This document shows, piece by piece, positions 1,067 through 16,449 of a stretch of DNA of 21,178 nt. The DNA comes from an uncultured bacterium. GTDB lineage: Bacteria > Krumholzibacteriota > Krumholzibacteriia > Krumholzibacteriales > WJIX01. The stretch lies in contig CAZAUK010000026.1 in the NCBI GenBank assembly GCA_964488475.1, forward strand, positions 1-21,178. The letters are read 5' to 3'. Under the pieces are notes generated by a model that saw only the letters and a program-made list of their open reading frames with translations, did not search any database and was not told the DNA's origin. Each line of letters begins with the position of its first letter. The first letter of the stretch is position 1. The translations under genes were made by a program, and so were the position numbers.

Positions 1067-2701
1067 CTATTTCATGATAAGGACCTTGCGCGTAAATGAG
1101 CGCTCTCCTATTCGAACCATCACAAAGTAAACACCGCCGGCGAGAGAGCCCCTGCAGCCGGACGCGGGATTCCACTCCTGAACAAACTGGCCTTTTCCGT
1201 GGATTCCTGCTGGAATATCGGACACTTTCCTTCCGGCTACATCGTATATCCCTATGTTTACCTCTTCCCTGTGTCCGAGAATGCAGTTAATGCTGAAACC
1301 GGCGCTGGTTGGATTTGGATAGATCTCCACTTGGTGCGGGAAACCTTCATCCGGCGGGCCGGAGTCTGTCACCACGACCTCCTCGCCGTACAGCAAAGCC
1401 GCGCCTTTGCCTCCTATGTTCCATCCTCCAGCCGCCAGGCTGCCCCCTCCGCCCGAATGCATTGTAAATCTTCCCGCCCCCGCCACCGAAATTCCCAGAC
1501 CTGAAGTGGTATCAGTCCCGACATCGGTGAAGGCCGCGGTGGCGGGCAGAGGATAGGTACCGGTGAACAGGTATACTTTTCCGAGCTGAACAGATGCCCC
1601 TCCATATCCGGGAGCGCCAATTATCATATCGCCGGTTCCATCTCCGTCCACGTCCGTGCTGGATATGGAATACCCGAATTGCTCTTCCATGAATTCTCCC
1701 ACCAGAGCGTCATCAGGTGTTCCGTCGACTATAGCTGCGCCCAGGAAGAAATACACCTTGCCCACATCGTCGCCGAAGAGGGAGTTGTAGTACGGGGCTG
1801 AGACTATATAATCATCTATCGAATCCCCGTTTATATCGCCTATGATTTTTGCCGCCGAGCCGAAAGCGTCTCCTACTGATACTCCTGTCATCTCAGCGTC
1901 GGCAACGGTGTCCATGGCCGCTCCGCACAGGTAGGCGTAAGCCTTTCCCGCCCATATGTCGGATTCATCGTTGCGGGGAGCCCCCACCAGCAGGTCATCC
2001 TCTCCGTCACCGTTTATGTCGCCTCCACAGTCTACTGTATATCCGAAAAAGTCGCCGGCGCCCTCACCGTAAAGAATTAAATCAGGATCCTGGTCCATGG
2101 GATCGCCACCAAAATATATGTATACCGCTCCGGTTGAATCCGCTTCGCAGGCTCCTACCACCAGGTCGTCGAAGCCGTCGGCATTAAGGTCTCCATTTAG
2201 GCACAGACCACGCCCGAAGCGGTCTCCGGAAGCTGATCCCTCAAGGACCAGGTCGGGAATCCCGTCCGGTGAGCAGCCGCCCAGAAAGAGGTACACGCGG
2301 CCGGGATCTTCTGACGCTCCAGAGGCGTATACGGCCACGTCGGAAAACCCGTCGTTGTTGATATCCCCCCCGCCGGCTACTCTTGTTCCCATCCTTTCGC
2401 CGGGGGCTCCGGTAAAGGTAAGGTCGGGAATCGAATCGGCGCTCATCCCGCCAAAATAAAGATAACACCGCCCGGCGGCGTCACCGCCGCTATCTTCCAG
2501 GTTGGCTCCCACCAGCAGGTCCTGGTATCCATCGCCGTTGAAGTCTCCGGCGCCGCAGAGCGAAATTCCGAATTGGTCGCTGATTTGCTGTCCTTGAAAG
2601 GTGGTGATCTTTTCCACCGATTGGGCAGGAAAGCTTATAAAAGATATCAGGAGAAAAGACGCCGAAAAGATCAAGAAAGATATTTTGAAGTAGTATTTCA
2701 T
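1067..2701 (-). CDS. FG-GAP repeat protein with a T9SS type-A C-terminal sorting domain (544 aa)
   Basis: Signal peptide MKYYFKISFLIFSASFLLISFISFPAQS. Many repeats of the form FG.S..GAGD.NGDG..DL.VGA, which are integrin-alpha FG-GAP/VCBS-like. The C-terminus YPNPTSAGFSI...IGIYDVAGRKV...GVYFVMVRIGERSFTRKVLIMK is a classic Por-secretion (T9SS) CTD. Confidence 0.85.
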   Translation of the reverse strand: MKYYFKISFLIFSASFLLISFISFPAQSVEKITTFQGQQISDQFGISLCGAGDFNGDGYQDLLVGANLEDSGGDAAGRCYLYFGGMSADSIPDLTFTGAPGERMGTRVAGGGDINNDGFSDVAVYASGASEDPGRVYLFLGGCSPDGIPDLVLEGSASGDRFGRGLCLNGDLNADGFDDLVVGACEADSTGAVYIYFGGDPMDQDPDLILYGEGAGDFFGYTVDCGGDINGDGEDDLLVGAPRNDESDIWAGKAYAYLCGAAMDTVADAEMTGVSVGDAFGSAAKIIGDINGDSIDDYIVSAPYYNSLFGDDVGKVYFFLGAAIVDGTPDDALVGEFMEEQFGYSISSTDVDGDGTGDMIIGAPGYGGASVQLGKVYLFTGTYPLPATAAFTDVGTDTTSGLGISVAGAGRFTMHSGGGGSLAAGGWNIGGKGAALLYGEEVVVTDSGPPDEGFPHQVEIYPNPTSAGFSINCILGHREEVNIGIYDVAGRKVSDIPAGIHGKGQFVQEWNPASGCRGSLAGGVYFVMVRIGERSFTRKVLIMK

Positions 2702-7992: not shown

Positions 7993-8583
7993 TTAGAAAG
8001 TGAATCCTCCAAGCAGGGAGAAGTACTTGGTGGAACTGCCTTCGGTAAAGATTATATGGAACAGAGGTTTTATCTCCCAGGTCCACTTTTCAGACTGGTG
8101 TACGGTCACCCCGCCGCCCAGATTTAATCCCGGCTTGAACTCCGAATCCTTGTAAGAGGTTGTAGTGCCCGAGACGGTGGTCTCGACATCCCAGGAGAAC
8201 CTGTAGAATCCGAATCCGGCCTGGCCGAAGAAAACGGCAGCGCCCATCGTATTGGGATTGAATATGAATTTCGCCTGAGGCAGGAATTCCATCACCGAGC
8301 CGGACCCGTCGATATCGGCCTGGGGAACCGCCCATCCGCCCTTGTCCACTCCCCATCTGTTGTAGGCGATCCTTCCGCCTAAGTGCACCCAGTCGTTATA
8401 GGGATAGAATCCGTCCAGTCCCAGGCACAGGCCGGTGTTGTAAAAATCCCCCGCGTCGCCGACCGGCATGGACAGTCCCGCGCCGGCGCTGAATTCGAGC
8501 ATATCCAGTTTTCCCTGGGCCTTGGTGTGTGAGATCGGGAGAATAATAAGAAGCGCGAAGATCAAAACAGCGACTTTCCGCAT
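7993..8583 (-). CDS. Small outer-membrane beta-barrel protein (OmpW/OmpA-like, 196 aa)
   Basis: Signal peptide MRKVAVLIFALLIILPISHTKAQG. Alternating hydrophobic, Gly/aromatic-rich beta-strand pattern. The C-terminal GGFTF ends in Phe, the typical BAM signal. RBS AAGGAGG. Confidence 0.7.
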   Translation of the reverse strand: MRKVAVLIFALLIILPISHTKAQGKLDMLEFSAGAGLSMPVGDAGDFYNTGLCLGLDGFYPYNDWVHLGGRIAYNRWGVDKGGWAVPQADIDGSGSVMEFLPQAKFIFNPNTMGAAVFFGQAGFGFYRFSWDVETTVSGTTTSYKDSEFKPGLNLGGGVTVHQSEKWTWEIKPLFHIIFTEGSSTKYFSLLGGFTF

Positions 8584-8744: not shown

Positions 8745-9569
8745 TCATGGCCCCGTTAGTTCGATAAGGCGCCTGGAAAAGTTGAATCCGCCTATTTGAG
8801 ATACGATTGACCTTTTTCCAGCTGTAAAGGGAAAGTTTATCAGCTCCGGCCTGCCCGCCGGGCTCAGCGAAACATTCTCCAGAAATTCGCCACACTTCAG
8901 GATAGAGGACGGCAGGGTAGCGAAGAACATGAAATCTATCAGCCCTTCCGCTTCCCTCTGGTCGACAGAGCACATAACGGACCTTCCGGGAATAACAGAA
9001 GGATCTGTCTTAAAGACGGGCTGGTTCTTGGTAAAGAACCTTCCGGCCTTAAGATACGCGAAAGGATTGCGAGCCGGGAATGCCGGGACATAGACTCTGA
9101 AAGAGCCGGCTGATTCGATGCTGGAAAGAAGCGTTTCTATCTCCCTGCCGCCGGGGGCGGCTTTCCGGTTGGAGAGGCCCGCGAGCATTCTCAGCCTTGC
9201 CGTTCCAGAGCCGGATTCAGTAGCGCTCGCATCTTCAAGTTCCCCGCCATTTTCGATCCTGCCGGCGGCTATTTCTCCAACTGTTTTCCTGATTCTTTCC
9301 AGGGATCTCAGCATACGGATTCTGAGCTGAACCGTGTCTATTTCAATCGACCAGAAGGGGAGAAATATAGAATCATCACTGATTCCGTCATTCGGAAGGG
9401 CGCCGCGTATTCTGATTTCTTTAAGGCCGCTTCGGGATATTATGAAATAGTTATAGCAGCCGGCGCATTGAAAGGTGATGCATTCCGGGTTCCCTTCCAG
9501 AGCTGATCCGCATCTTGGGCAAACGAGTCTTTCTATGGTAAGGGATCCGTTCATATCAACTTCCTTCAA
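8745..9569 (-). CDS. N-terminal zinc-ribbon protein, paralog 1 of 3 (274 aa, no TM)
   Basis: CPRCGS...CAGC ribbon followed by a conserved PFW segment (IFLPFWSIEI). It overlaps the stop of the upstream gene by 14 nt, consistent with translational coupling. RBS GAAGGAAG. Confidence 0.65.
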   Translation of the reverse strand: MKEVDMNGSLTIERLVCPRCGSALEGNPECITFQCAGCYNYFIISRSGLKEIRIRGALPNDGISDDSIFLPFWSIEIDTVQLRIRMLRSLERIRKTVGEIAAGRIENGGELEDASATESGSGTARLRMLAGLSNRKAAPGGREIETLLSSIESAGSFRVYVPAFPARNPFAYLKAGRFFTKNQPVFKTDPSVIPGRSVMCSVDQREAEGLIDFMFFATLPSSILKCGEFLENVSLSPAGRPELINFPFTAGKRSIVSQIGGFNFSRRLIELTGP

Positions 9570-10662
9570 ACCATCTGCTCAGCCTGTGCTTGAGCCAACG
9601 GTGCGGGGCAATGACTCCGCCGCTTTTGACCTGGTCGGCCGTGTAGACAAGGGCGGCGGCGATGATCACCAGGGGAAACCAGGTGCCCGCCAGAAAGGCC
9701 AGCGCGGCCGGCACGAAAAAAAACGGAGCGGGATTTATCGTTTTTCTTTTGGGGACGTCGGAGCGGATAACAGCGCCGCTGGAGCCGTCTATTGTTATAA
9801 CGTGTATGATATCCCTGAACTTGTAGCGGATCAGGTAGACCGGGTAATAGTAAAGGGACAGGGATTTGCCGAACAGGTTGAATCTTCCGGCGTGGATTCT
9901 GGAGCCGGAGGGCTTGGCCAGGTTTATTGAATGTTTCAGGCAGTCGGCTTCCGCTTTCTTTTCTCCTGTCATGGGAATAGCGATATTCATGGAGGCCTTG
10001 AGGTCGTGGTTGAATACCTCCCATTCAAGAAGGGAGGCTCTGAGGGCTATTCCCTGAAGCCCGAGGTATCTTAGAACGCAGGCCGGGGCGCTCCAGTCCA
10101 CGCGCCTGGTTATGAATTTGGAGAAAGGATGTTTGACCTCCCTCACCGTTGTCGTGGTCATCTCTCCGTTTGGAGTGGCTACCGGCTTTTCGATCTTTTT
10201 AAGCTCGACCCGGTCTCCGCAGATCCATCCCATGAATCTTCCTCTCATCTTCCAGAAAGGCACGTAGACCAGCTTTTCCTCCATGATGGAAGTGTGTTTG
10301 GCTTTTACCAGGTCACCGCTCTCCTTGGAAATATGACGAATAGCGGTGAGCCTGGCCTTGCCCCCGGTTATTTCAGGCTTCAGGTAGAAGCTTCTGACTC
10401 CTCGAGGATCAGAGACGTACAGCCCGGCCCCGCAGTATTCACATTCCAGGCTCTTTACCCCTTCCGAGACTCTCAGCGATCCTCCGCATGACGGGCAGAG
10501 GGCTCCAAAAGTCTCCCGGGCAGCCGGCCGACCGGGGTCAGGTTCCTTTCCCCGGAACCGGCTTTCCGATACTGATGCTGCTACAGGGTCGAAGGCCGAT
10601 TGAAAACCTTCAGCCAAGCCGTGGCCCGGAACGCCCTTCTGGTAAAGAGTATGGTCATTCAT
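9556..10662 (-). CDS. Zinc-ribbon protein, paralog 2 of 3, with a C-terminal TM anchor (368 aa from M42 of the track ORF)
   Basis: Start trimmed to ATG 10662 because it forms an ATGAATGA overlap with the stop of the upstream CDS 10655..11359. Ribbon CPSCGG...CEYCG. Conserved YVPFWKMRG segment. C-terminal hydrophobic stretch FFFVPAALAFLAGTWFPLVIIAAALVY. Confidence 0.6.
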   Translation of the reverse strand: MNDHTLYQKGVPGHGLAEGFQSAFDPVAASVSESRFRGKEPDPGRPAARETFGALCPSCGGSLRVSEGVKSLECEYCGAGLYVSDPRGVRSFYLKPEITGGKARLTAIRHISKESGDLVKAKHTSIMEEKLVYVPFWKMRGRFMGWICGDRVELKKIEKPVATPNGEMTTTTVREVKHPFSKFITRRVDWSAPACVLRYLGLQGIALRASLLEWEVFNHDLKASMNIAIPMTGEKKAEADCLKHSINLAKPSGSRIHAGRFNLFGKSLSLYYYPVYLIRYKFRDIIHVITIDGSSGAVIRSDVPKRKTINPAPFFFVPAALAFLAGTWFPLVIIAAALVYTADQVKSGGVIAPHRWLKHRLSRWFEGS

Positions 10663-11359
10663 TGGAGGCCGCCAACTTGCCGCGAAGCTTGAAAAACAAA
10701 AATCCGGCCGCCGCGGCCGCTCCCAGCAGCACCAGCCTCGGCAGGGTTCCACCGGCCAGCCGGCCCAGAAAAAGGTAGCCGGCAAAAAGAGCGCCCGCGG
10801 CGATTATTCCGGGCTTATCCAGAGGTTCGGCTTTTCTGGGAGGCAGGCGGTCAATCTGAACCCACCAGCTTTCCCCGATGACCGCAGCTTTCCAACGCCT
10901 TTTGGACAGGTTAAAGGAGACGTCATAAACCGGCAGGTATATTATTCTGGAAGCGTCAGGGTCGACGGCGGAAGGCCTGATTATTTTTTCTCCCCCGGCC
11001 AGTTCCTGGTCAAAGTAGCAGTAATCGCCGGCGGGTGGATCCGGCATAGGCCCGACAGATGAAGGAGCGTCCCCGCTGGGGCAGGCGCTGTTGCCTCCAT
11101 CCTGATCTTCTATGATGAAGAATGGGGCGAAGGCGAATTTAATTCTGATGTTTTTGGCTCGTCCCATGTTTCGTTTCAGAAGAAACGACTCAAGTACATC
11201 TTCCGCGGTGCGGTCGTTCCTCTGGTGGGGAAGAATAAGCTGTTCCCCGCGGCCGCCGTCTTCCACGGTAAGGGCTGAACCGCAGTAAGAGCACCTCATC
11301 ATGCTCTGTCCTGGATGAACCCTGTTTTCGCCGCCGCATAGATCGCACTTGACCAGCAT
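10655..11359 (-). CDS. Zinc-ribbon protein, paralog 3 of 3, with a C-terminal TM anchor (234 aa)
   Basis: Ribbon CDLCGG...CSYCGS. FAFAPFFIIED segment. C-terminal hydrophobic stretch IIAAGALFAGYLFLG...LVLLGAAAAAGFLFF. It starts 2 nt after the stop of the SPFH gene (TAGAAATG). RBS GGGAGA. Confidence 0.65.
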   Translation of the reverse strand: MLVKCDLCGGENRVHPGQSMMRCSYCGSALTVEDGGRGEQLILPHQRNDRTAEDVLESFLLKRNMGRAKNIRIKFAFAPFFIIEDQDGGNSACPSGDAPSSVGPMPDPPAGDYCYFDQELAGGEKIIRPSAVDPDASRIIYLPVYDVSFNLSKRRWKAAVIGESWWVQIDRLPPRKAEPLDKPGIIAAGALFAGYLFLGRLAGGTLPRLVLLGAAAAAGFLFFKLRGKLAASNE

Positions 11360-11361
11360 TT

Positions 11362-12507
11362 CTAATCTCCCTGAACCCTTTCACCACAGTTTGTGCAGAA
11401 CTTCGTGCCGGGCGGCAGCTTGGCCCCGCAATGCCGGCATTTCAGATCCTCGCTCAGTTCTTTTCCGCAGTTGGAACAGAATCTGGCTTCCCCGGGCAGC
11501 TCCGTATGGCATTCGGGGCACCTGTTCATGGAGATGAGCTGGGCGCCGCAGTTTCTGCAGAACCTCGAATCGGATGAGACCTCATTGTGGCAGCGGGGGC
11601 AGTTCAGTTGCCCGGCCGCTGCTTCGCCCTGTCCGGCCGGCCGCCCCGTGACCGCCTGGGCGAGCATTCCGGGCATCATCATTCCCAGACCGGCTCCCAC
11701 TCCTATTCCCATTCCGCCGGCCGCGGCGCTTCCCGCGCCGCCGGTCCCGGCGCCGGTTGCTGCGTCCCCCATCGCTTTGGCCGCCTTGAACTTGAAGAAA
11801 CTGTCAAGATTTCCCACCGCCTGAAGCCCGCTCCTCTCGTCGATCATCTTCTGCACCTCGGCCGGAGGAGTAATGGAATTTATATACAAGTCCACCAGCT
11901 CCATGCCGTACTTTGAAAAGTCGTTTTCAAGACGGTTTCTTATTTCCACGGCCAGCTCGTCGTAATTCTGCGGAAGCTCGAATATGGTGTCGAGCTGCTC
12001 GCCGAACAGATCATTGATTCTGGAGACGATCACGTCTCTTAAATAGTTCCCTATCATCTCGCTGGTGTACACGCCCTGGGTCCCCACCACGTGGTTTATA
12101 AACAGGACCGGTTCCCTGATCTTGAAGGTATAGAGCCCGAAGGCCCTCAGCCTTACCAGACCCAGCTTGCTGTCCTTAAAGGCCACGGGATCCTTGGTCC
12201 CCCATTTCTGGCTTAGGAAGGTCTTCATGTTTACGAAGTAGACCTCGGCCCTGAAGGGACTTTTGAACCCCCAGGGAAGTGAGAGGACCTTGGTGAGAAT
12301 GGGAAGGTTTTTAGTGGTCAGAGTGTGGCGGCCGGAACCGAAAATATCCAGTCCCTTACCGTCCTTGAAAAAAACGGCGCTCTGGTTGTCTCGAACCACC
12401 AGCTGGGCCCCCATCTTGATTTCGGCTGATCCTTCAGGGGGCAGCCGGTGGACGATTTCTTGCCCGCTCTGGTCGAACCATTCCAGTACTTCCATAAACT
12501 GAGACAT
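11362..12507 (-). CDS. SPFH/Band-7 (Band_7_1, YdjI-like) domain protein with a Gly/Ala/Met-rich linker and three C-terminal zinc ribbons (381 aa)
   Basis: The start is set at M6 (ATG 12507), which follows the RBS GGAGGAAAG. N-terminal segments [18 protein letters not shown] and [27 protein letters not shown] match my recollection of the Band_7_1 family, often mis-annotated as 'virion core protein'. The C-terminus carries CPRCH..CRNCG, CPECH..CSNCG and CRHCG..CTNCG. Confidence 0.75.
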
Positions 12508-12860
12508 CTTTCCTCCATTCACTGTGTTTGTTATCTGTTATAATCACTGCGCTTAAGTGCGCCGGCGGCTTCATCCGCCGGGACTAGCCATAAAAATCAT
12601 CGTTGCTTATTTTTTCGGGTATATTCCATTTGAGCAAAGGGAGTGCCAAAATTCACCCTGCCCTGGAGTTATGGAGGAAAGCCCGGCCGCCGCCGGGCAA
12701 AATCTGTCTGGACAACCGATTTATATATTTTAATATATATGTAGCGCCACCGGCGGCCCGGTAAAGAATGATGAATATCGGTCTCCGCTGTGGGTCAGCC
12801 GCTTGAAAGAAGCAGCCGCGATGGCTGGGGGCAACGGTTTTAACAGGGAAACGGCCTGAG

Positions 12861-14582
12861 ATGAAATCATATATTCTGCCTTCGATCGTTCGGTATTTCA
12901 TATATCCCTTTTACCGGGGTTTTAGAAAGGACAGGGTTCTTTCCATACTGGATGAACTGGAGCGGAACCAGTGGCTGTCCTTCGAAGAGATAGAGGATAT
13001 CCAGTGGCGGAGGCTGATAGGCCTGCTCAAATACGCCGTCCTGCACGTACCCTATTACCGGGACCTCTTCAAAAAAAGAGATATTATGGCGGACCAGATT
13101 GAAAGTGCCTCCGATTTCAGGAAAATCCCTTTTCTTACCAGAAATCTGATCAGGGACAACAGCCGGGAACTGGTAAGCGGGGATCCCCTGCGCAAGGGTT
13201 ACGTCGCCAGCACGGGCGATTACGCCGGAGAGCTTCTTGATGTTTTCTGTGATTACTCGGCGGGGCCGGTCCGGCGTGCCAACACCTTAAGGCAGCTCAG
13301 GGCCGCAGGTGTCGACATAGGCGAGAAACAGCTGTATCTGGTAGGGTTTCAGAGTGACAGGCCGCTCAAAGAGCGCTTTAAGGAAGGGATCAAGGATTTT
13401 TTCTATAACAGAAGATTCCTTTCCGCTTTCGATATGTCGGAAGACAACATGAAAAGGTACGCTTCGGTGGAGCGTTCCTACAGGCCGTCTCTGGTAGTGG
13501 GGATTCCATCGGCCCTCACCCTTTTCTCGAAGTTCTGCCTTAACAATTCGATAGAGCTTCATACCCCCAAAGCGATCTTCACCAAGGGAGAGACTCTATA
13601 CCAGGATCAGAGGGAAATGATCGAGAAAGCGTTCTCGGCGCCGGTGTTCAACCGGTACGGATCTAGAGAGTTCGCCGAGGTAGCCTGCGAATGCGAAAAA
13701 CACGACGGAATGCACCTGTCAAGCGATCTGTTCTACGTGGAGGTTGTAAGGCCCGGCGGCGGGCCCGCCGCTCCCGGGGAAGAGGGGGAGCTGGTGATCA
13801 CCGATCTTTCAAATCTATATATGCCTTTTATTCGATACAGGACCGGCGATAAGGCCGTTCAGTCGGACAGGCAGTGTTCCTGTGGAAGGGGGCTTCCTCT
13901 CCTGGAAGGTATAGAAGCCCGAACGGTGGACTCGGTGAGGACGCCGGGGGGAAAGGTGGTTCCCGGTTTTTTCTGGATGTGGCTGTCCAGGACAGTACCC
14001 GGAGTCAAAAGGTTCCAGGTGGAACAGATGAAGTTGTCCTCCATAAATTACAGGATGATTCCCGGAAGGGGCTGGAAGGATGAATACGCTGAAGAGCTCA
14101 AGAAAAAAATTAGAGCTAACTGCGGAGAAAACATGAGCGTTAATATGATGATCGTTGATGAGATACCGGTATCTGAAAACGGCAGGGCCCGGTTCATGAT
14201 TTCTAATATAAAGGATAGGCTGGTAATAAAATCAAAGATTCACAAGGCGAACGTTACCGGGGTAGAGCCCGGCCTCAATGACTGTTTGCGGATCGACGCC
14301 GAACTCATGGATCTGGCGGACATATCTGAATACGAGAAGATACTCATAGTCAACAGCACCAACGGTTCCCGCCTGGAGACTTTCGCTGTCAGGGGAGAAA
14401 GGGGGACCGGGGAGATAGTCTCCTGCGGTGGAGTTTCAGCCCAGGTTTCCAGGGGAGATGAGATAGGCGTCATGGCATTCACCTGGTCCAGCGAACCGGA
14501 AAGCGCCTTCAGCAACATTCTGGTGGATGAAAAGAACAGGTTCTCGCGTTATCTTACCGAGACGGCTGGAGATAAGATTTAG
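12861..14582 (+). CDS. PaaK/CapK-family adenylate-forming enzyme (phenylacetate-CoA-ligase-like) fused to a C-terminal PanD-like, probably non-catalytic, domain (573 aa)
   Basis: The N-terminal roughly 440 aa show the PaaK/CapK/F390-synthetase-like signatures: WLSFEEIEDIQWRRLIGLLKYAVLHVPYYRDLF, IRYRTGD and EARTVDSVRTPGGKVVPGFF (the A8-like R.DD.....G..V.P). The C-terminal roughly 125 aa align along their whole length with aspartate 1-decarboxylase. Confidence 0.75.
   Translation: MKSYILPSIVRYFIYPFYRGFRKDRVLSILDELERNQWLSFEEIEDIQWRRLIGLLKYAVLHVPYYRDLFKKRDIMADQIESASDFRKIPFLTRNLIRDNSRELVSGDPLRKGYVASTGDYAGELLDVFCDYSAGPVRRANTLRQLRAAGVDIGEKQLYLVGFQSDRPLKERFKEGIKDFFYNRRFLSAFDMSEDNMKRYASVERSYRPSLVVGIPSALTLFSKFCLNNSIELHTPKAIFTKGETLYQDQREMIEKAFSAPVFNRYGSREFAEVACECEKHDGMHLSSDLFYVEVVRPGGGPAAPGEEGELVITDLSNLYMPFIRYRTGDKAVQSDRQCSCGRGLPLLEGIEARTVDSVRTPGGKVVPGFFWMWLSRTVPGVKRFQVEQMKLSSINYRMIPGRGWKDEYAEELKKKIRANCGENMSVNMMIVDEIPVSENGRARFMISNIKDRLVIKSKIHKANVTGVEPGLNDCLRIDAELMDLADISEYEKILIVNSTNGSRLETFAVRGERGTGEIVSCGGVSAQVSRGDEIGVMAFTWSSEPESAFSNILVDEKNRFSRYLTETAGDKI
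14196..14579 (+). other. PanD-like domain within the fusion protein (residues ~446-573)
   Basis: IKSKIHKANVT aligns with PanD LKSKIHRATVT, so K9, H11, R54 and T57 are conserved. The cleavage/pyruvoyl site G24-S25 is replaced by D-C (codons GAC TGT at 14280-14285). Y58 is F, and the N72 of NGAAAH is C (CGGVSAQ). An in-frame ATG at 14196 lies just upstream of the domain. Confidence 0.65.
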
Positions 14583-14583
14583 A

Positions 14584-14640
14584 CTGTCCCGGCCCCGATA
14601 TAAATTTCAACCTGTATCAGGAGGGAGACAGGTTTTATTT
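14584..14640 (+). terminator. Possible weak intrinsic terminator after the PaaK-PanD-like fusion gene
   Basis: CCTGT-(12-nt loop)-ACAGG at 14611-14632, followed by TTTTATTT (14633-14640). An alternative outer pairing is CTGTCCC / GGGA(ga)CAG. The stem is short, so this call is weak. Confidence 0.3.
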
Positions 14641-14927
14641 CATCCCGGCCCGGCATTAGGATCACGTGCCGCTTTGAAACCGGTATAGGATTCAACCAGC
14701 ATCCTGCGGTAGTCCGGATTCATTCCATCTCGCCCCGGGAATAAAATTCGCCTCATCCCTGCCGGTATTTTTTTCTTTGCCTTTGTTTTTAATAATTATT
14801 AAATATATTTTATACGAAGCCACCGTTATTCAGAATTACCGGCCGCCGATTTAAGCTTGGAGGTTTTCCGGCTCCCGGCGATAACCGGCGGCATATTACA
14901 CAAGATGTTTTTAAAGGGAGCGCTTCT

Positions 14928-15287
14928 ATGAAAAGGCTTCTTCTCAAATCGATGATATTAGACGCCAGGGTTACCCAGGCCGACCTTCGCTACGTGGGAA
15001 GCATAACCATAGACGAGGATCTTCTGGAAAAATCGGATCTGTCCGAGCATGAGAATGTTCATGTCGTCAACAGGACTAACGGCAACAGGCTGCAGACTTA
15101 CATCATAAAAGGGGAGAGGGGTTCGGGAGTCATATGCATGAACGGCGCGGCAGCTCACCTGGTCAACGAGGGCGACCATATAGATATTATGACCTTTTCC
15201 TGGTCCGAGGATGAGGCCCGGCCGCTTTTTATAAAGCTGGACGGGAAAAACCGCTTTCTGAGGTACTGCGGCAGTGATGAGATCTGA
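14928..15287 (+). CDS. panD: Aspartate 1-decarboxylase (PanD) zymogen, 119 aa, with non-canonical M9/L11
   Basis: Colinear with E. coli, B. subtilis and M. tuberculosis PanD: ...VTQADLRYVGSITIDEDL...NGNRLQTYIIKGERGSGVICMNGAAAHLV. G24-S25, R54, T57, Y58 and N72 are conserved, but position 9 is M (canonical K) and position 11 is L (canonical H). RBS AAGGGAG. A 60-bp AT-rich block at 14780-14822 upstream is a likely promoter region. Confidence 0.85.
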   Translation: MKRLLLKSMILDARVTQADLRYVGSITIDEDLLEKSDLSEHENVHVVNRTNGNRLQTYIIKGERGSGVICMNGAAAHLVNEGDHIDIMTFSWSEDEARPLFIKLDGKNRFLRYCGSDEI

Positions 15288-15321
15288 CACCGTCTTCCTC
15301 TGATTCCCGGAAAGGAAAACA

Positions 15322-16449
15322 ATGCTGAAGAAGAGCCTGCGCCTGTTCCAGCTGTGGGGGATACCCGTAGAGCTGCACGTGAGCTGGCTGCTCATCCTGG
15401 TGCTGATAACCTGGAGCTTCGCCACAGGGTTTTATCCCGCCAATTATCCCGGGCTTTTTTCGTCCTTGCAGATTTGGGCCATGTCGCTTCTTACCGCCGT
15501 TCTACTTTTCATTTCAATCCTCCTTCACGAATTCAGCCATTCGCTGGTTGCCAAGCGAAACGGCCTGCCCATAGGAAAGATAACTCTGTTCATGTTCGGA
15601 GGGGTGGCCCAGATGAAAAACGAGGTGGAAAGTCCCGGGGTAGAATTGAGAATGGCCTCGGCCGGCCCTGTCATGACCCTGGTGCTGGTGGGAGTCTTCT
15701 ATCTGCTTTCCCGGCTGCTGTATGGGGTCACATGGCTTTCCGTGCTGTTCCAGGCTCTTTCCAGTATCAACGCCGTCGTTTTCATATTCAACATGGTGCC
15801 TGGATTCCCCCTGGATGGGGGCAGGATTCTGAGGGCCTTGATATGGTACAAAAACGGAAATATTCTTAAAGCCACCAGATTCGCCAGCATGATCGGCAAG
15901 GGTTTCGCCCTTCTATTAATGGCATTCGGAGTTTTCAGCGTGCTGGTTTACTCCAACTTCATAGGAGGGATATGGCTGGTGATAATCGGTGGATTCCTGA
16001 GACAGGCGGCAAACAGGAGCTACAAGATAGTTCTCTACAGACAGGTGCTGGAAGAAATGGATCTGGAGGATATAGTAAGGCGGGATGTGGTCACGGTGAA
16101 TCCCTCGATGAATCTGGAGGCTCTGGTAAACGAATACTTCAGAAGATACCAGTATTTTTCATTCCCGGTCGTGGAGAACGGATTCCTGATAGGACTGGTA
16201 TCGATAGATGACGTAAAAAAGGTAAAAAAGACCTCATGGGCGGATACTATAGTGGCGAGGGTGGTCAACACCAGGCTGCGGGAGTTTGTCATTCACGGTT
16301 TTAATTCTCCGGGCAGGCTTTTTCAGCTGATCAACTCGAACAAGTACGATAATTTTCCCGTAGTGGACAGCACCGGGACTCTGCGCGGAATCATAAACAG
16401 AAGCGATTTCGAAAAAGCGGTCAAGGTCACCCTCTCCCTGAGCAGATAG
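15322..16449 (+). CDS. M50-family site-2 protease with a C-terminal CBS-domain pair (375 aa)
   Basis: HEFSH (HExxH) in a TM segment; second S2P motif NMVPGFPLDGGRIL (the LDG motif); multiple TM helices. The C-terminal roughly 130 aa show two CBS-like repeats (VVTVNP..., FPVVENGFLIGLVSIDDV, FPVVDSTGTLRGIINRSD). RBS AAAGGAAAACA. It starts 34 nt after panD, suggesting an operon. Confidence 0.8.
   Translation: MLKKSLRLFQLWGIPVELHVSWLLILVLITWSFATGFYPANYPGLFSSLQIWAMSLLTAVLLFISILLHEFSHSLVAKRNGLPIGKITLFMFGGVAQMKNEVESPGVELRMASAGPVMTLVLVGVFYLLSRLLYGVTWLSVLFQALSSINAVVFIFNMVPGFPLDGGRILRALIWYKNGNILKATRFASMIGKGFALLLMAFGVFSVLVYSNFIGGIWLVIIGGFLRQAANRSYKIVLYRQVLEEMDLEDIVRRDVVTVNPSMNLEALVNEYFRRYQYFSFPVVENGFLIGLVSIDDVKKVKKTSWADTIVARVVNTRLREFVIHGFNSPGRLFQLINSNKYDNFPVVDSTGTLRGIINRSDFEKAVKVTLSLSR

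Follow-up and report, generated by a model that had tools for sequence, protein, structure and literature searches.

A four-gene operon of an uncultured Krumholzibacteriota bacterium as a probable variant of the YdjI/YdjG (SamI/SamG) SPFH module with a divided zinc-ribbon partner

A stretch of 21,178 nucleotides (nt) from an uncultured bacterium of the Krumholzibacteriota (assembly GCA_964488475.1, contig CAZAUK010000026.1; the whole stretch is referred to here as the window) carries four tightly spaced minus-strand open reading frames (ORFs), A, B, C and D, at 8745-12507, the span assigned to them in an initial annotation made from the sequence alone. The operon is considered probably to be an expanded, lineage-specific SamI/SamG-type (YdjI/YdjG) SPFH membrane-scaffold module, in which the SPFH protein is encoded by gene A and the zinc-ribbon partner is represented by B, C and D. 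As such the four-gene cassette is a variant of the known YdjI/YdjG system and reveals no new mechanism. In Bacillus subtilis, recruitment of the soluble YdjI/SamI to the membrane is the work of YdjG/SamG and YdjH/SamH, and the membrane complex is held in check by SamI. YdjG has two zinc ribbons, a YpeB-related NTF2-like domain and a transmembrane (TM) segment, YdjH is a TPM-domain protein, and YdjI consists of a band-7 domain with a C-terminal ribbon (PMC11237479). The B. subtilis pspA-ydjGHI locus used for comparison was taken from a metagenome contig, with a published ydjG primer (PMC8581546) as the search pattern.

Gene A (11362..12507, minus strand) encodes a YdjI/SamI-type SPFH protein of 381 amino acids (aa) without a TM segment. 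Its residues 26-228 (11824..12432, minus strand, coordinates checked by translation) matched Pfam Band_7_1 (PF13421) at E 1.8e-64, the cut-off being 24 bits, and the SPFH assignment made earlier for this gene thus passed a hidden Markov model (HMM) test; YdjI/SamI-type SPFH proteins (Pfam Band_7_1; COG4260) are expected to form higher-order oligomers and to depend on partner proteins for reaching the membrane. A Gly/Ala/Met-rich low-complexity linker follows (residues 238-299; 11611..11796, minus strand), and behind it, as originally described, three tandem 4-Cys zinc ribbons (residues 300-378; 11374..11610, minus strand), which were matched by Pfam DZR at 2.3e-23 and Zn_Ribbon_1 at 6.4e-23 in three stretches each. 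Kyte-Doolittle hydropathy in 19-residue windows (KD19) reached a maximum of 1.39 in the linker, under the TM threshold, and no KD19 window in A exceeded 1.4; B. subtilis YdjI and other relatives have a comparable Gly/Met-rich stretch, as judged by alignment and, for YdjI, by PMC8581546. B. subtilis YdjI, which itself matched the PF13421 model at 8.3e-43, aligned with A at 28% identity (phmmer, E 1.9e-35). A is shown by these comparisons to be a YdjI-family SPFH protein predicted to have no membrane anchor of its own. A sequence search of the PDB with A returned no match to a solved relative.

The three genes that follow, also on the minus strand, are B (10655..11359), a short YdjG/SamG-family paralog of 234 aa, C (9556..10662), a long one of 368 aa, and D (8745..9554), a divergent YdjG-type paralog of 269 aa from the ATG at 9554 and without a membrane segment. 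Each protein has an N-terminal CxxC...CxxC zinc ribbon, at residues 5-27 of B (11279-11347), residues 56-78 of C behind a disordered N-terminus (10429-10497) and residues 12-34 of D (9453-9521). All four Cys are kept in every full-length homolog, and a P-F/Y-W motif is invariant inside each of the B, C and D families, in agreement with the initial annotation, which had seen a 4-Cys ribbon and a conserved PFW/PFF segment in all three. The ribbon of C is followed by an alpha+beta core, YpeB/PepSY/cystatin-like, at residues 90-301 (9760-10395, minus strand), and B contains a minimal alpha+beta core; the YpeB-related (NTF2/PepSY-like) domain placed after the ribbons of YdjG in PMC11237479 is thus found here as well. 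A profile of B matched B. subtilis YdjG at E 1.2e-8 and a profile of C at E 5.1e-6, and a profile of 102 relatives recovered with the C profile matched YdjG residues 51-337 with 75.6 bits and E 1.6e-25. By sequence comparison B and C are therefore shown to belong to the YdjG/SamG family, with its ribbon, YpeB/PepSY-like core and predicted C-terminal hydrophobic anchor, and together with the YdjI match of A this bears out the earlier view of the locus as a variant of the B. subtilis YdjGHI module with multiplied ribbon partners. B, C and D have one ribbon each and YdjG and most single partners have two, the first ribbon of YdjG matching Pfam Zn_Ribbon_TF. Pfam scans of B, C and D themselves gave sub-threshold zinc-ribbon matches only and no NfeD, and NCBIfam and PADLOC scans of A-D were uninformative on B, C and D.

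That the three partners are paralogs of one another, as first proposed, could be evaluated only with profiles, because pairwise comparison of B, C and D by BLASTP picked up nothing but the ribbon shared by B and C. Comparison of the B and C families with hhalign gave 98.2% probability and E 3e-14 over 219 columns, with a large insertion in C relative to B, and by this measure B and C are true paralogs on solid ground. Narrow profiles of D gave only weak hhalign results against B or C (33% and 22%). A wide D alignment of 32 sequences from D-like modules, compared with the wide YdjG-like alignment of 102 C relatives, gave 97.8% and E 1e-12 over 203 columns, the match spanning the ribbon, the PFW strand, a helix and the YYPxW/FPF strands. 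D is thus, at the level of remote homology only, a divergent and apparently membrane-less member of the YdjG-like family. Beyond its ribbon it has an LPFW strand, a coiled insert, and FRVYVPAF and LINFPF strands, with no hydrophobic stretch; an AlphaFold2 (AF2) model from a 3-sequence alignment had a mean confidence (pLDDT) of 45.6 and was unusable. A role of D as a replacement for the TPM protein YdjH was considered and dropped after profile comparison with the B. subtilis proteins.

The hydrophobic C-termini of B and C were evaluated by hydropathy only. B has two hydrophobic stretches of 15 residues each, within residues 184-224 (10688-10810, minus strand) and preceded by its core. C has a hydrophobic helix at residues 311-347 (9622-9732, minus strand), with a hydrophobic stretch of about 30 residues that contains prolines, and then a basic amphipathic helix at residues 353-365. 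C-terminal membrane anchoring of B and C is plausible from these features. Two of the partners had been annotated as tail-anchored by a single TM helix: C-terminal hydrophobic segments do occur in B and C, but the stretches are atypical and fit a hairpin as much as a single-pass tail anchor.

The junctions between the genes, read directly, are close. At A/B the stop TAG is followed by 2 nt and an ATG, and B and C share an 8-nt ATGAATGA overlap, both as annotated at the outset. The 14-nt overlap also reported for C and D arises from starting D at a TTG; the ATG at 9554 (TGA-T-ATG, with GAAGGA upstream) leaves a 1-nt gap instead and was preferred because the homologs start at the equivalent Met and a public gene call has exactly 269 aa. 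The ATG of gene A has GGAGG upstream and agrees with the N-termini of its homologs. In five related loci the close spacing is kept, from a 42-nt gap to an 11-nt overlap, and A-B-C-D are therefore regarded as an operon, with translational coupling of the four genes a reasonable inference.

The A-B-C-D cassette was found in six independent Krumholzibacteriota loci, namely the window and those designated L001, L003, L004, L005 and L010; L002 is a second assembly with the same gene products as L001, and L011 stops after B. The flanks vary among these loci, the neighbours in L004 being entirely different, while the cassette is constant, and the four genes therefore form a conserved unit. The protein clusters returned by word-based searches numbered 123 for C, 73 for B and only 3 for D, the named homologs of B and C coming from Candidatus Krumholzibacteriota metagenome-assembled genomes. 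Few homologs of D were recovered, yet the fourth gene of the related loci aligns to D at 36-38% identity, so that D is conserved but fast-evolving.

Beyond the phylum, 1.84 billion representative proteins were scanned by HMMER with the C profile (E up to 1e-3), and the YdjG-like family was found to comprise at least 1,554 matching protein clusters at 50% identity. About 18 of the 149 top representative proteins, of 460-604 aa, are fusions of a C-like and a D-like part, and such fusions were also found at nine genome loci. In a scan with an SPFH alignment of one genome per GTDB species, from which the best 80 loci were taken (counts that are biased toward relatives of the query), a YdjG-family gene lay directly downstream of the SPFH gene in about 29, from many phyla. 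These figures suggest that the SPFH+YdjG pair is the widespread unit. One protein of about 370 aa, carrying two ribbons and a lone C-terminal TM segment, is the partner in Bacillota, Paenibacillus, Cohnella, Sphingobacterium, Sumerlaeota and others; a fused C-like+D-like partner of 450-500 aa with no hydrophobic segment accompanies the closest SPFH relatives (Binatia, Deltaproteobacteria, Zixibacteria, Ignavibacteriales); a B+C partner was seen in L026, whose contig ends early; and many loci, for example in Acidobacteriota, have no detectable partner. Krumholzibacteriota alone showed the full split into B, C and D. The partner, it is suggested, may occur in duplicate, in separate pieces or joined to a D-type module that has no membrane segment. 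Among relatives the SPFH protein carries between 0 and 3 ribbons; that this number might track the partner type was considered and set aside, holding only for the fused C-D class, as three ribbons also occur with a single partner or none.

Two features that the initial annotation had singled out are, on this evidence, ordinary for the family. Ribbons fused to the SPFH protein do not distinguish the locus, YdjI itself having a C-terminal ribbon and 38 of the 80 relatives having three. Nor does the absence of pspA: PspA and YdjH gave no match in the 80 loci (by single-sequence phmmer, of limited reach), Pfam on the ten neighbouring genes at four loci gave unrelated genes with no PspA or TPM, and PspA and SamH thus went undetected beside the SPFH+YdjG pair at every locus sampled outside B. 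subtilis. In the window itself no tested protein had a Pfam match to TPM_phosphatase (YdjH/SamH), YdjH gave no phmmer match there or in L001-L005, and no PspA was found in the 21-kb window or within 8 kb on each side in five related loci. The one real peculiarity of the locus is the triplication or division of the partner into B, C and D, of which the initial annotation had noted the triplication.

These results also bear on whether the proteins could act as in Bacillus, as an adaptor that recruits an ESCRT-III-like PspA/IM30 protein, encoded elsewhere, to damaged membrane. PspA of B. subtilis needs YdjI to form foci, and the two proteins interact (PMC8581546), Band-7 and PspA are repeatedly associated in comparative genomics (PMC11237479), and an SPFH-ESCRT link has been noted in archaea (PMC10936438). 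Against such a role stand the failure to detect PspA in the window, in the five related loci and, within the reach of the phmmer search, in the 80 SPFH loci, and the finding that PspA is not needed for the samI phenotype of B. subtilis (10.64898/2026.02.06.704340). A PspA adaptor is accordingly thought unlikely, if worth keeping in mind.

For the SPFH membrane-scaffold module that is preferred here, a working model can be outlined. B and C would be embedded in the inner membrane, where they would hold oligomeric A against the cytoplasmic face; D would pair with C, substituting for the tandem arrangement of the fusion proteins; the zinc ribbons would serve as protein-protein contacts; and the assembly would organise or sense a stressed patch of membrane, with or without recruiting a PspA/IM30 protein whose gene lies elsewhere. 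The Psp-like stress function is inferred from work in B. subtilis, where YdjG/H are needed for membrane foci of YdjI and PspA, as supported by bacterial two-hybrid interactions (PMC8581546). Functional linkage of the genes is indicated by the C-D fusions, by conservation of the cassette despite differing flanks and by the recurrent order of an SPFH gene followed by a YdjG-like gene.

Several observations weigh against this model. YdjH/SamH, a direct two-hybrid partner of YdjI and PspA, has no counterpart here. No hydrophobic segment of any kind occurs in the fused C-D partners of Binatia, Deltaproteobacteria and Zixibacteria, and the partner as membrane anchor is therefore not universal in the family. 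In nine loci with fused partners (L012, L014 and L017-L023) no hydrophobic segment was predicted, and neither the SPFH protein nor the partner has an obvious anchor. For B and C a hairpin topology is as likely as a single pass, and the homology of D emerges only with wide, hand-assembled profiles. A further, more tentative proposal is that the conserved core is the SPFH(Band_7_1)+YdjG-like pair without PspA or SamH, forming a self-contained sensor or scaffold for membrane stress, in which the partner might be a modular hetero-oligomer of membrane-inserted B and C with soluble D, and the long beta-hairpins of C an element for oligomerisation or membrane contact. Neither Pfam nor NCBIfam nor PADLOC contains a family model for the pair, and no account of it as a unit was found.

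The hairpins in question are seen in the AF2 model of C, where residues 125-193 and 254-292 (9787-10290) form beta-strands of up to 39 residues (DSSP) at pLDDT of about 90; part of this region is missing from B. Foldseek of the model against the PDB gave nothing significant, the best matches being pore-forming toxins and secretins at E of about 0.1 or worse. Very long hairpins with such non-significant matches to pore-forming toxins could recall a module for anti-phage defence or abortive infection, one that would disrupt the membrane upon infection, and an SPFH+YdjG-like pair on a Vibrio plasmid adjoins TIR-domain and TRAF-binding-domain genes. At that locus (L006, Vibrio coralliilyticus plasmid NZ_CP048695.1, 700-8133) an SPFH gene with a GYF-like C-terminus replacing the ribbons is followed by a two-ribbon YdjG-like gene, the pair being divergent from the TIR-domain and TRAF-binding-domain genes, and the context could be a defence island. 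A defensive role for the Krumholzibacteriota operon is nonetheless hardly to be expected: PADLOC-DB 2.0 had no match for A, B or C and only a chance-level HerA match for D (E 0.03 or worse), the cassette is flanked in Krumholzibacteriota by genes for housekeeping or the envelope, the Foldseek values are of the order given above, and the SPFH protein is nearly absent from phage records (2 of 50,697). A phage or virion origin was dropped, the 2 matches to A in these 50,697 records being weak.

It might also be supposed that B, C and D are membrane-tethered regulators whose ribbons bind nucleic acid or a transcription factor (of anti-sigma or TFIIB type), with A controlling their release. The Zn_Ribbon_TF match of the first ribbon of YdjG points that way, as do the RpoP/S27AE-like labels given to C homologs by JGI, and for B. 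subtilis it has been proposed that SamGH signal to transcription (10.64898/2026.02.06.704340). No DNA-binding or sigma-related family was matched by B, C or D, the cassette has no conserved regulator gene next to it, and the RpoP/S27AE names rest solely on the ribbon, so that such regulators must be held very improbable. The names themselves, 'DNA-directed RNA polymerase subunit RPC12/RpoP' or 'ribosomal protein S27AE' for C homologs P0006, P0019, P0073 and others, were probably carried over from the zinc ribbon alone.

Upstream of A, an intergenic region of 353 nt (12508..12860, bounded by ORFs) separates the operon from a divergent gene for a CapK_C+PanD fusion, and the operon promoter presumably lies there, in the region that the initial annotation took to be shared with the PanD locus. 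A sigma-70 consensus scan found no minus-strand site in 12508..12860, the consensus being one that may not fit the phylum, and hits of the sigma-70 promoter and terminator scans showed no excess over shuffled sequence. Where relatives have both the cassette and the PanD locus, the two are separated by other genes; otherwise the neighbourhood is different. At 12861-16449 on the plus strand, a 573-aa CapK_C-like adenylating enzyme fused to PanD (Asp_decarbox), whose PanD part is without the Gly-Ser self-cleavage motif, is followed by a stand-alone PanD-like gene with YVGSITID (14928-15287, plus strand) and a Peptidase_M50+CBS gene (15322-16449, plus strand). This trio also occurs in L003 and L005 and may represent an uncharacterised beta-alanine-related envelope pathway.

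The M50 gene lies 2.8 kb from the operon and is again near the cassette in L003 and L005, and SPFH cages are known to enclose FtsH. On these grounds A could be imagined as an HflK/C-like enclosure, with cystatin/PepSY-like B, C and D binding or inhibiting a membrane protease such as the nearby M50/CBS protein. Yet the M50 gene belongs to a separate cluster on the opposite strand, none was found in the flanks examined of L001 or L004, and sampled SPFH+YdjG pairs of other phyla have unrelated neighbours; the fold similarity is weak, and the predicted cytoplasmic location of the partners is at odds with the usual extracytoplasmic role of PepSY. A protease-regulating cage is thus judged improbable. 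On the other side of the operon are a 196-aa ORF (7993-8583, minus strand), where L001 has OMP_b-brl-type genes, and, farther away, an FG-GAP repeat protein with a Por_Secre_tail (type IX secretion sorting) domain (1067-2701, minus strand); the two point to a host that has an outer membrane and type IX secretion. A separate observation concerns L007 (Gemmatirosa kalamazoonensis plasmid NZ_CP007129.1, 5926-11347), where a one-ribbon SPFH gene precedes two ribbon-led ORFs that look by eye like DUF4178, with further genes resembling AdoMet decarboxylase and spermidine synthase (by eye from translations); this would be a different, polyamine-type band-7 context as in PMC11237479.

The SamGHI/YdjGHI system has been studied only in B. 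subtilis (a 2021 paper and a 2026 preprint) and has been treated as PspA-linked and Firmicute-type. The present comparison delimits the YdjG-like family and the D-type module, a sizeable group without a Pfam or NCBIfam model and mislabelled by JGI as RpoP or S27AE, and it offers experimenters natural variants with which to ask which contacts matter.

Among known systems, the SPFH-NfeD and HflK/C-FtsH operons (stomatin/QmcA-YbbJ, flotillin-YqiJ/YuaF) are alike in combining an SPFH scaffold with a small membrane-anchored partner, but belong to another SPFH subfamily than A, which is of the Band_7_1 type and lacks an anchor of its own, and have a partner unrelated to that of the window, which resembles neither NfeD nor YqiJ. 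Closer are the two-gene SPFH(Band_7_1)+YdjG-like pairs of Bacillota, Paenibacillus, Cohnella, Sphingobacterium, Sumerlaeota, Methylotuvimicrobium and the Vibrio plasmid. Like A-B-C-D, these have the SPFH gene first and the YdjG-family gene next, with no adjoining PspA or TPM detected; they differ in that a single two-ribbon, one-TM partner fills the role that is here spread over B, C and D. The pairs of an SPFH gene with a fused YdjG-like core and D-like module include the closest SPFH relatives (50-64% identity, three ribbons) and share both modules with the window. There, the two form one polypeptide for which no membrane segment is predicted, and a B-like gene is absent; in the window C and D each have a gene of their own, and B and C have hydrophobic C-termini.

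The system best known is pspA-ydjGHI (pspA-samGHI) of B. subtilis, which in Bacillus is under sigma-W control. The Krumholzibacteriota operon differs from it in having neither pspA nor the TPM-domain ydjH/samH, in gene order (SPFH first, I then G, as against G-H-I), in its three one-ribbon YdjG-type paralogs, of which D has no membrane segment, in place of one two-ribbon YdjG, and in the three ribbons of its SPFH protein as against one in YdjI. Both are single tight operons. A and YdjI have in common a Band_7_1 domain, a Gly/Met-rich linker and C-terminal ribbons, with no TM segment, and B and C match YdjG/SamG in an N-terminal ribbon, a YpeB/PepSY-like core and a predicted C-terminal hydrophobic anchor.

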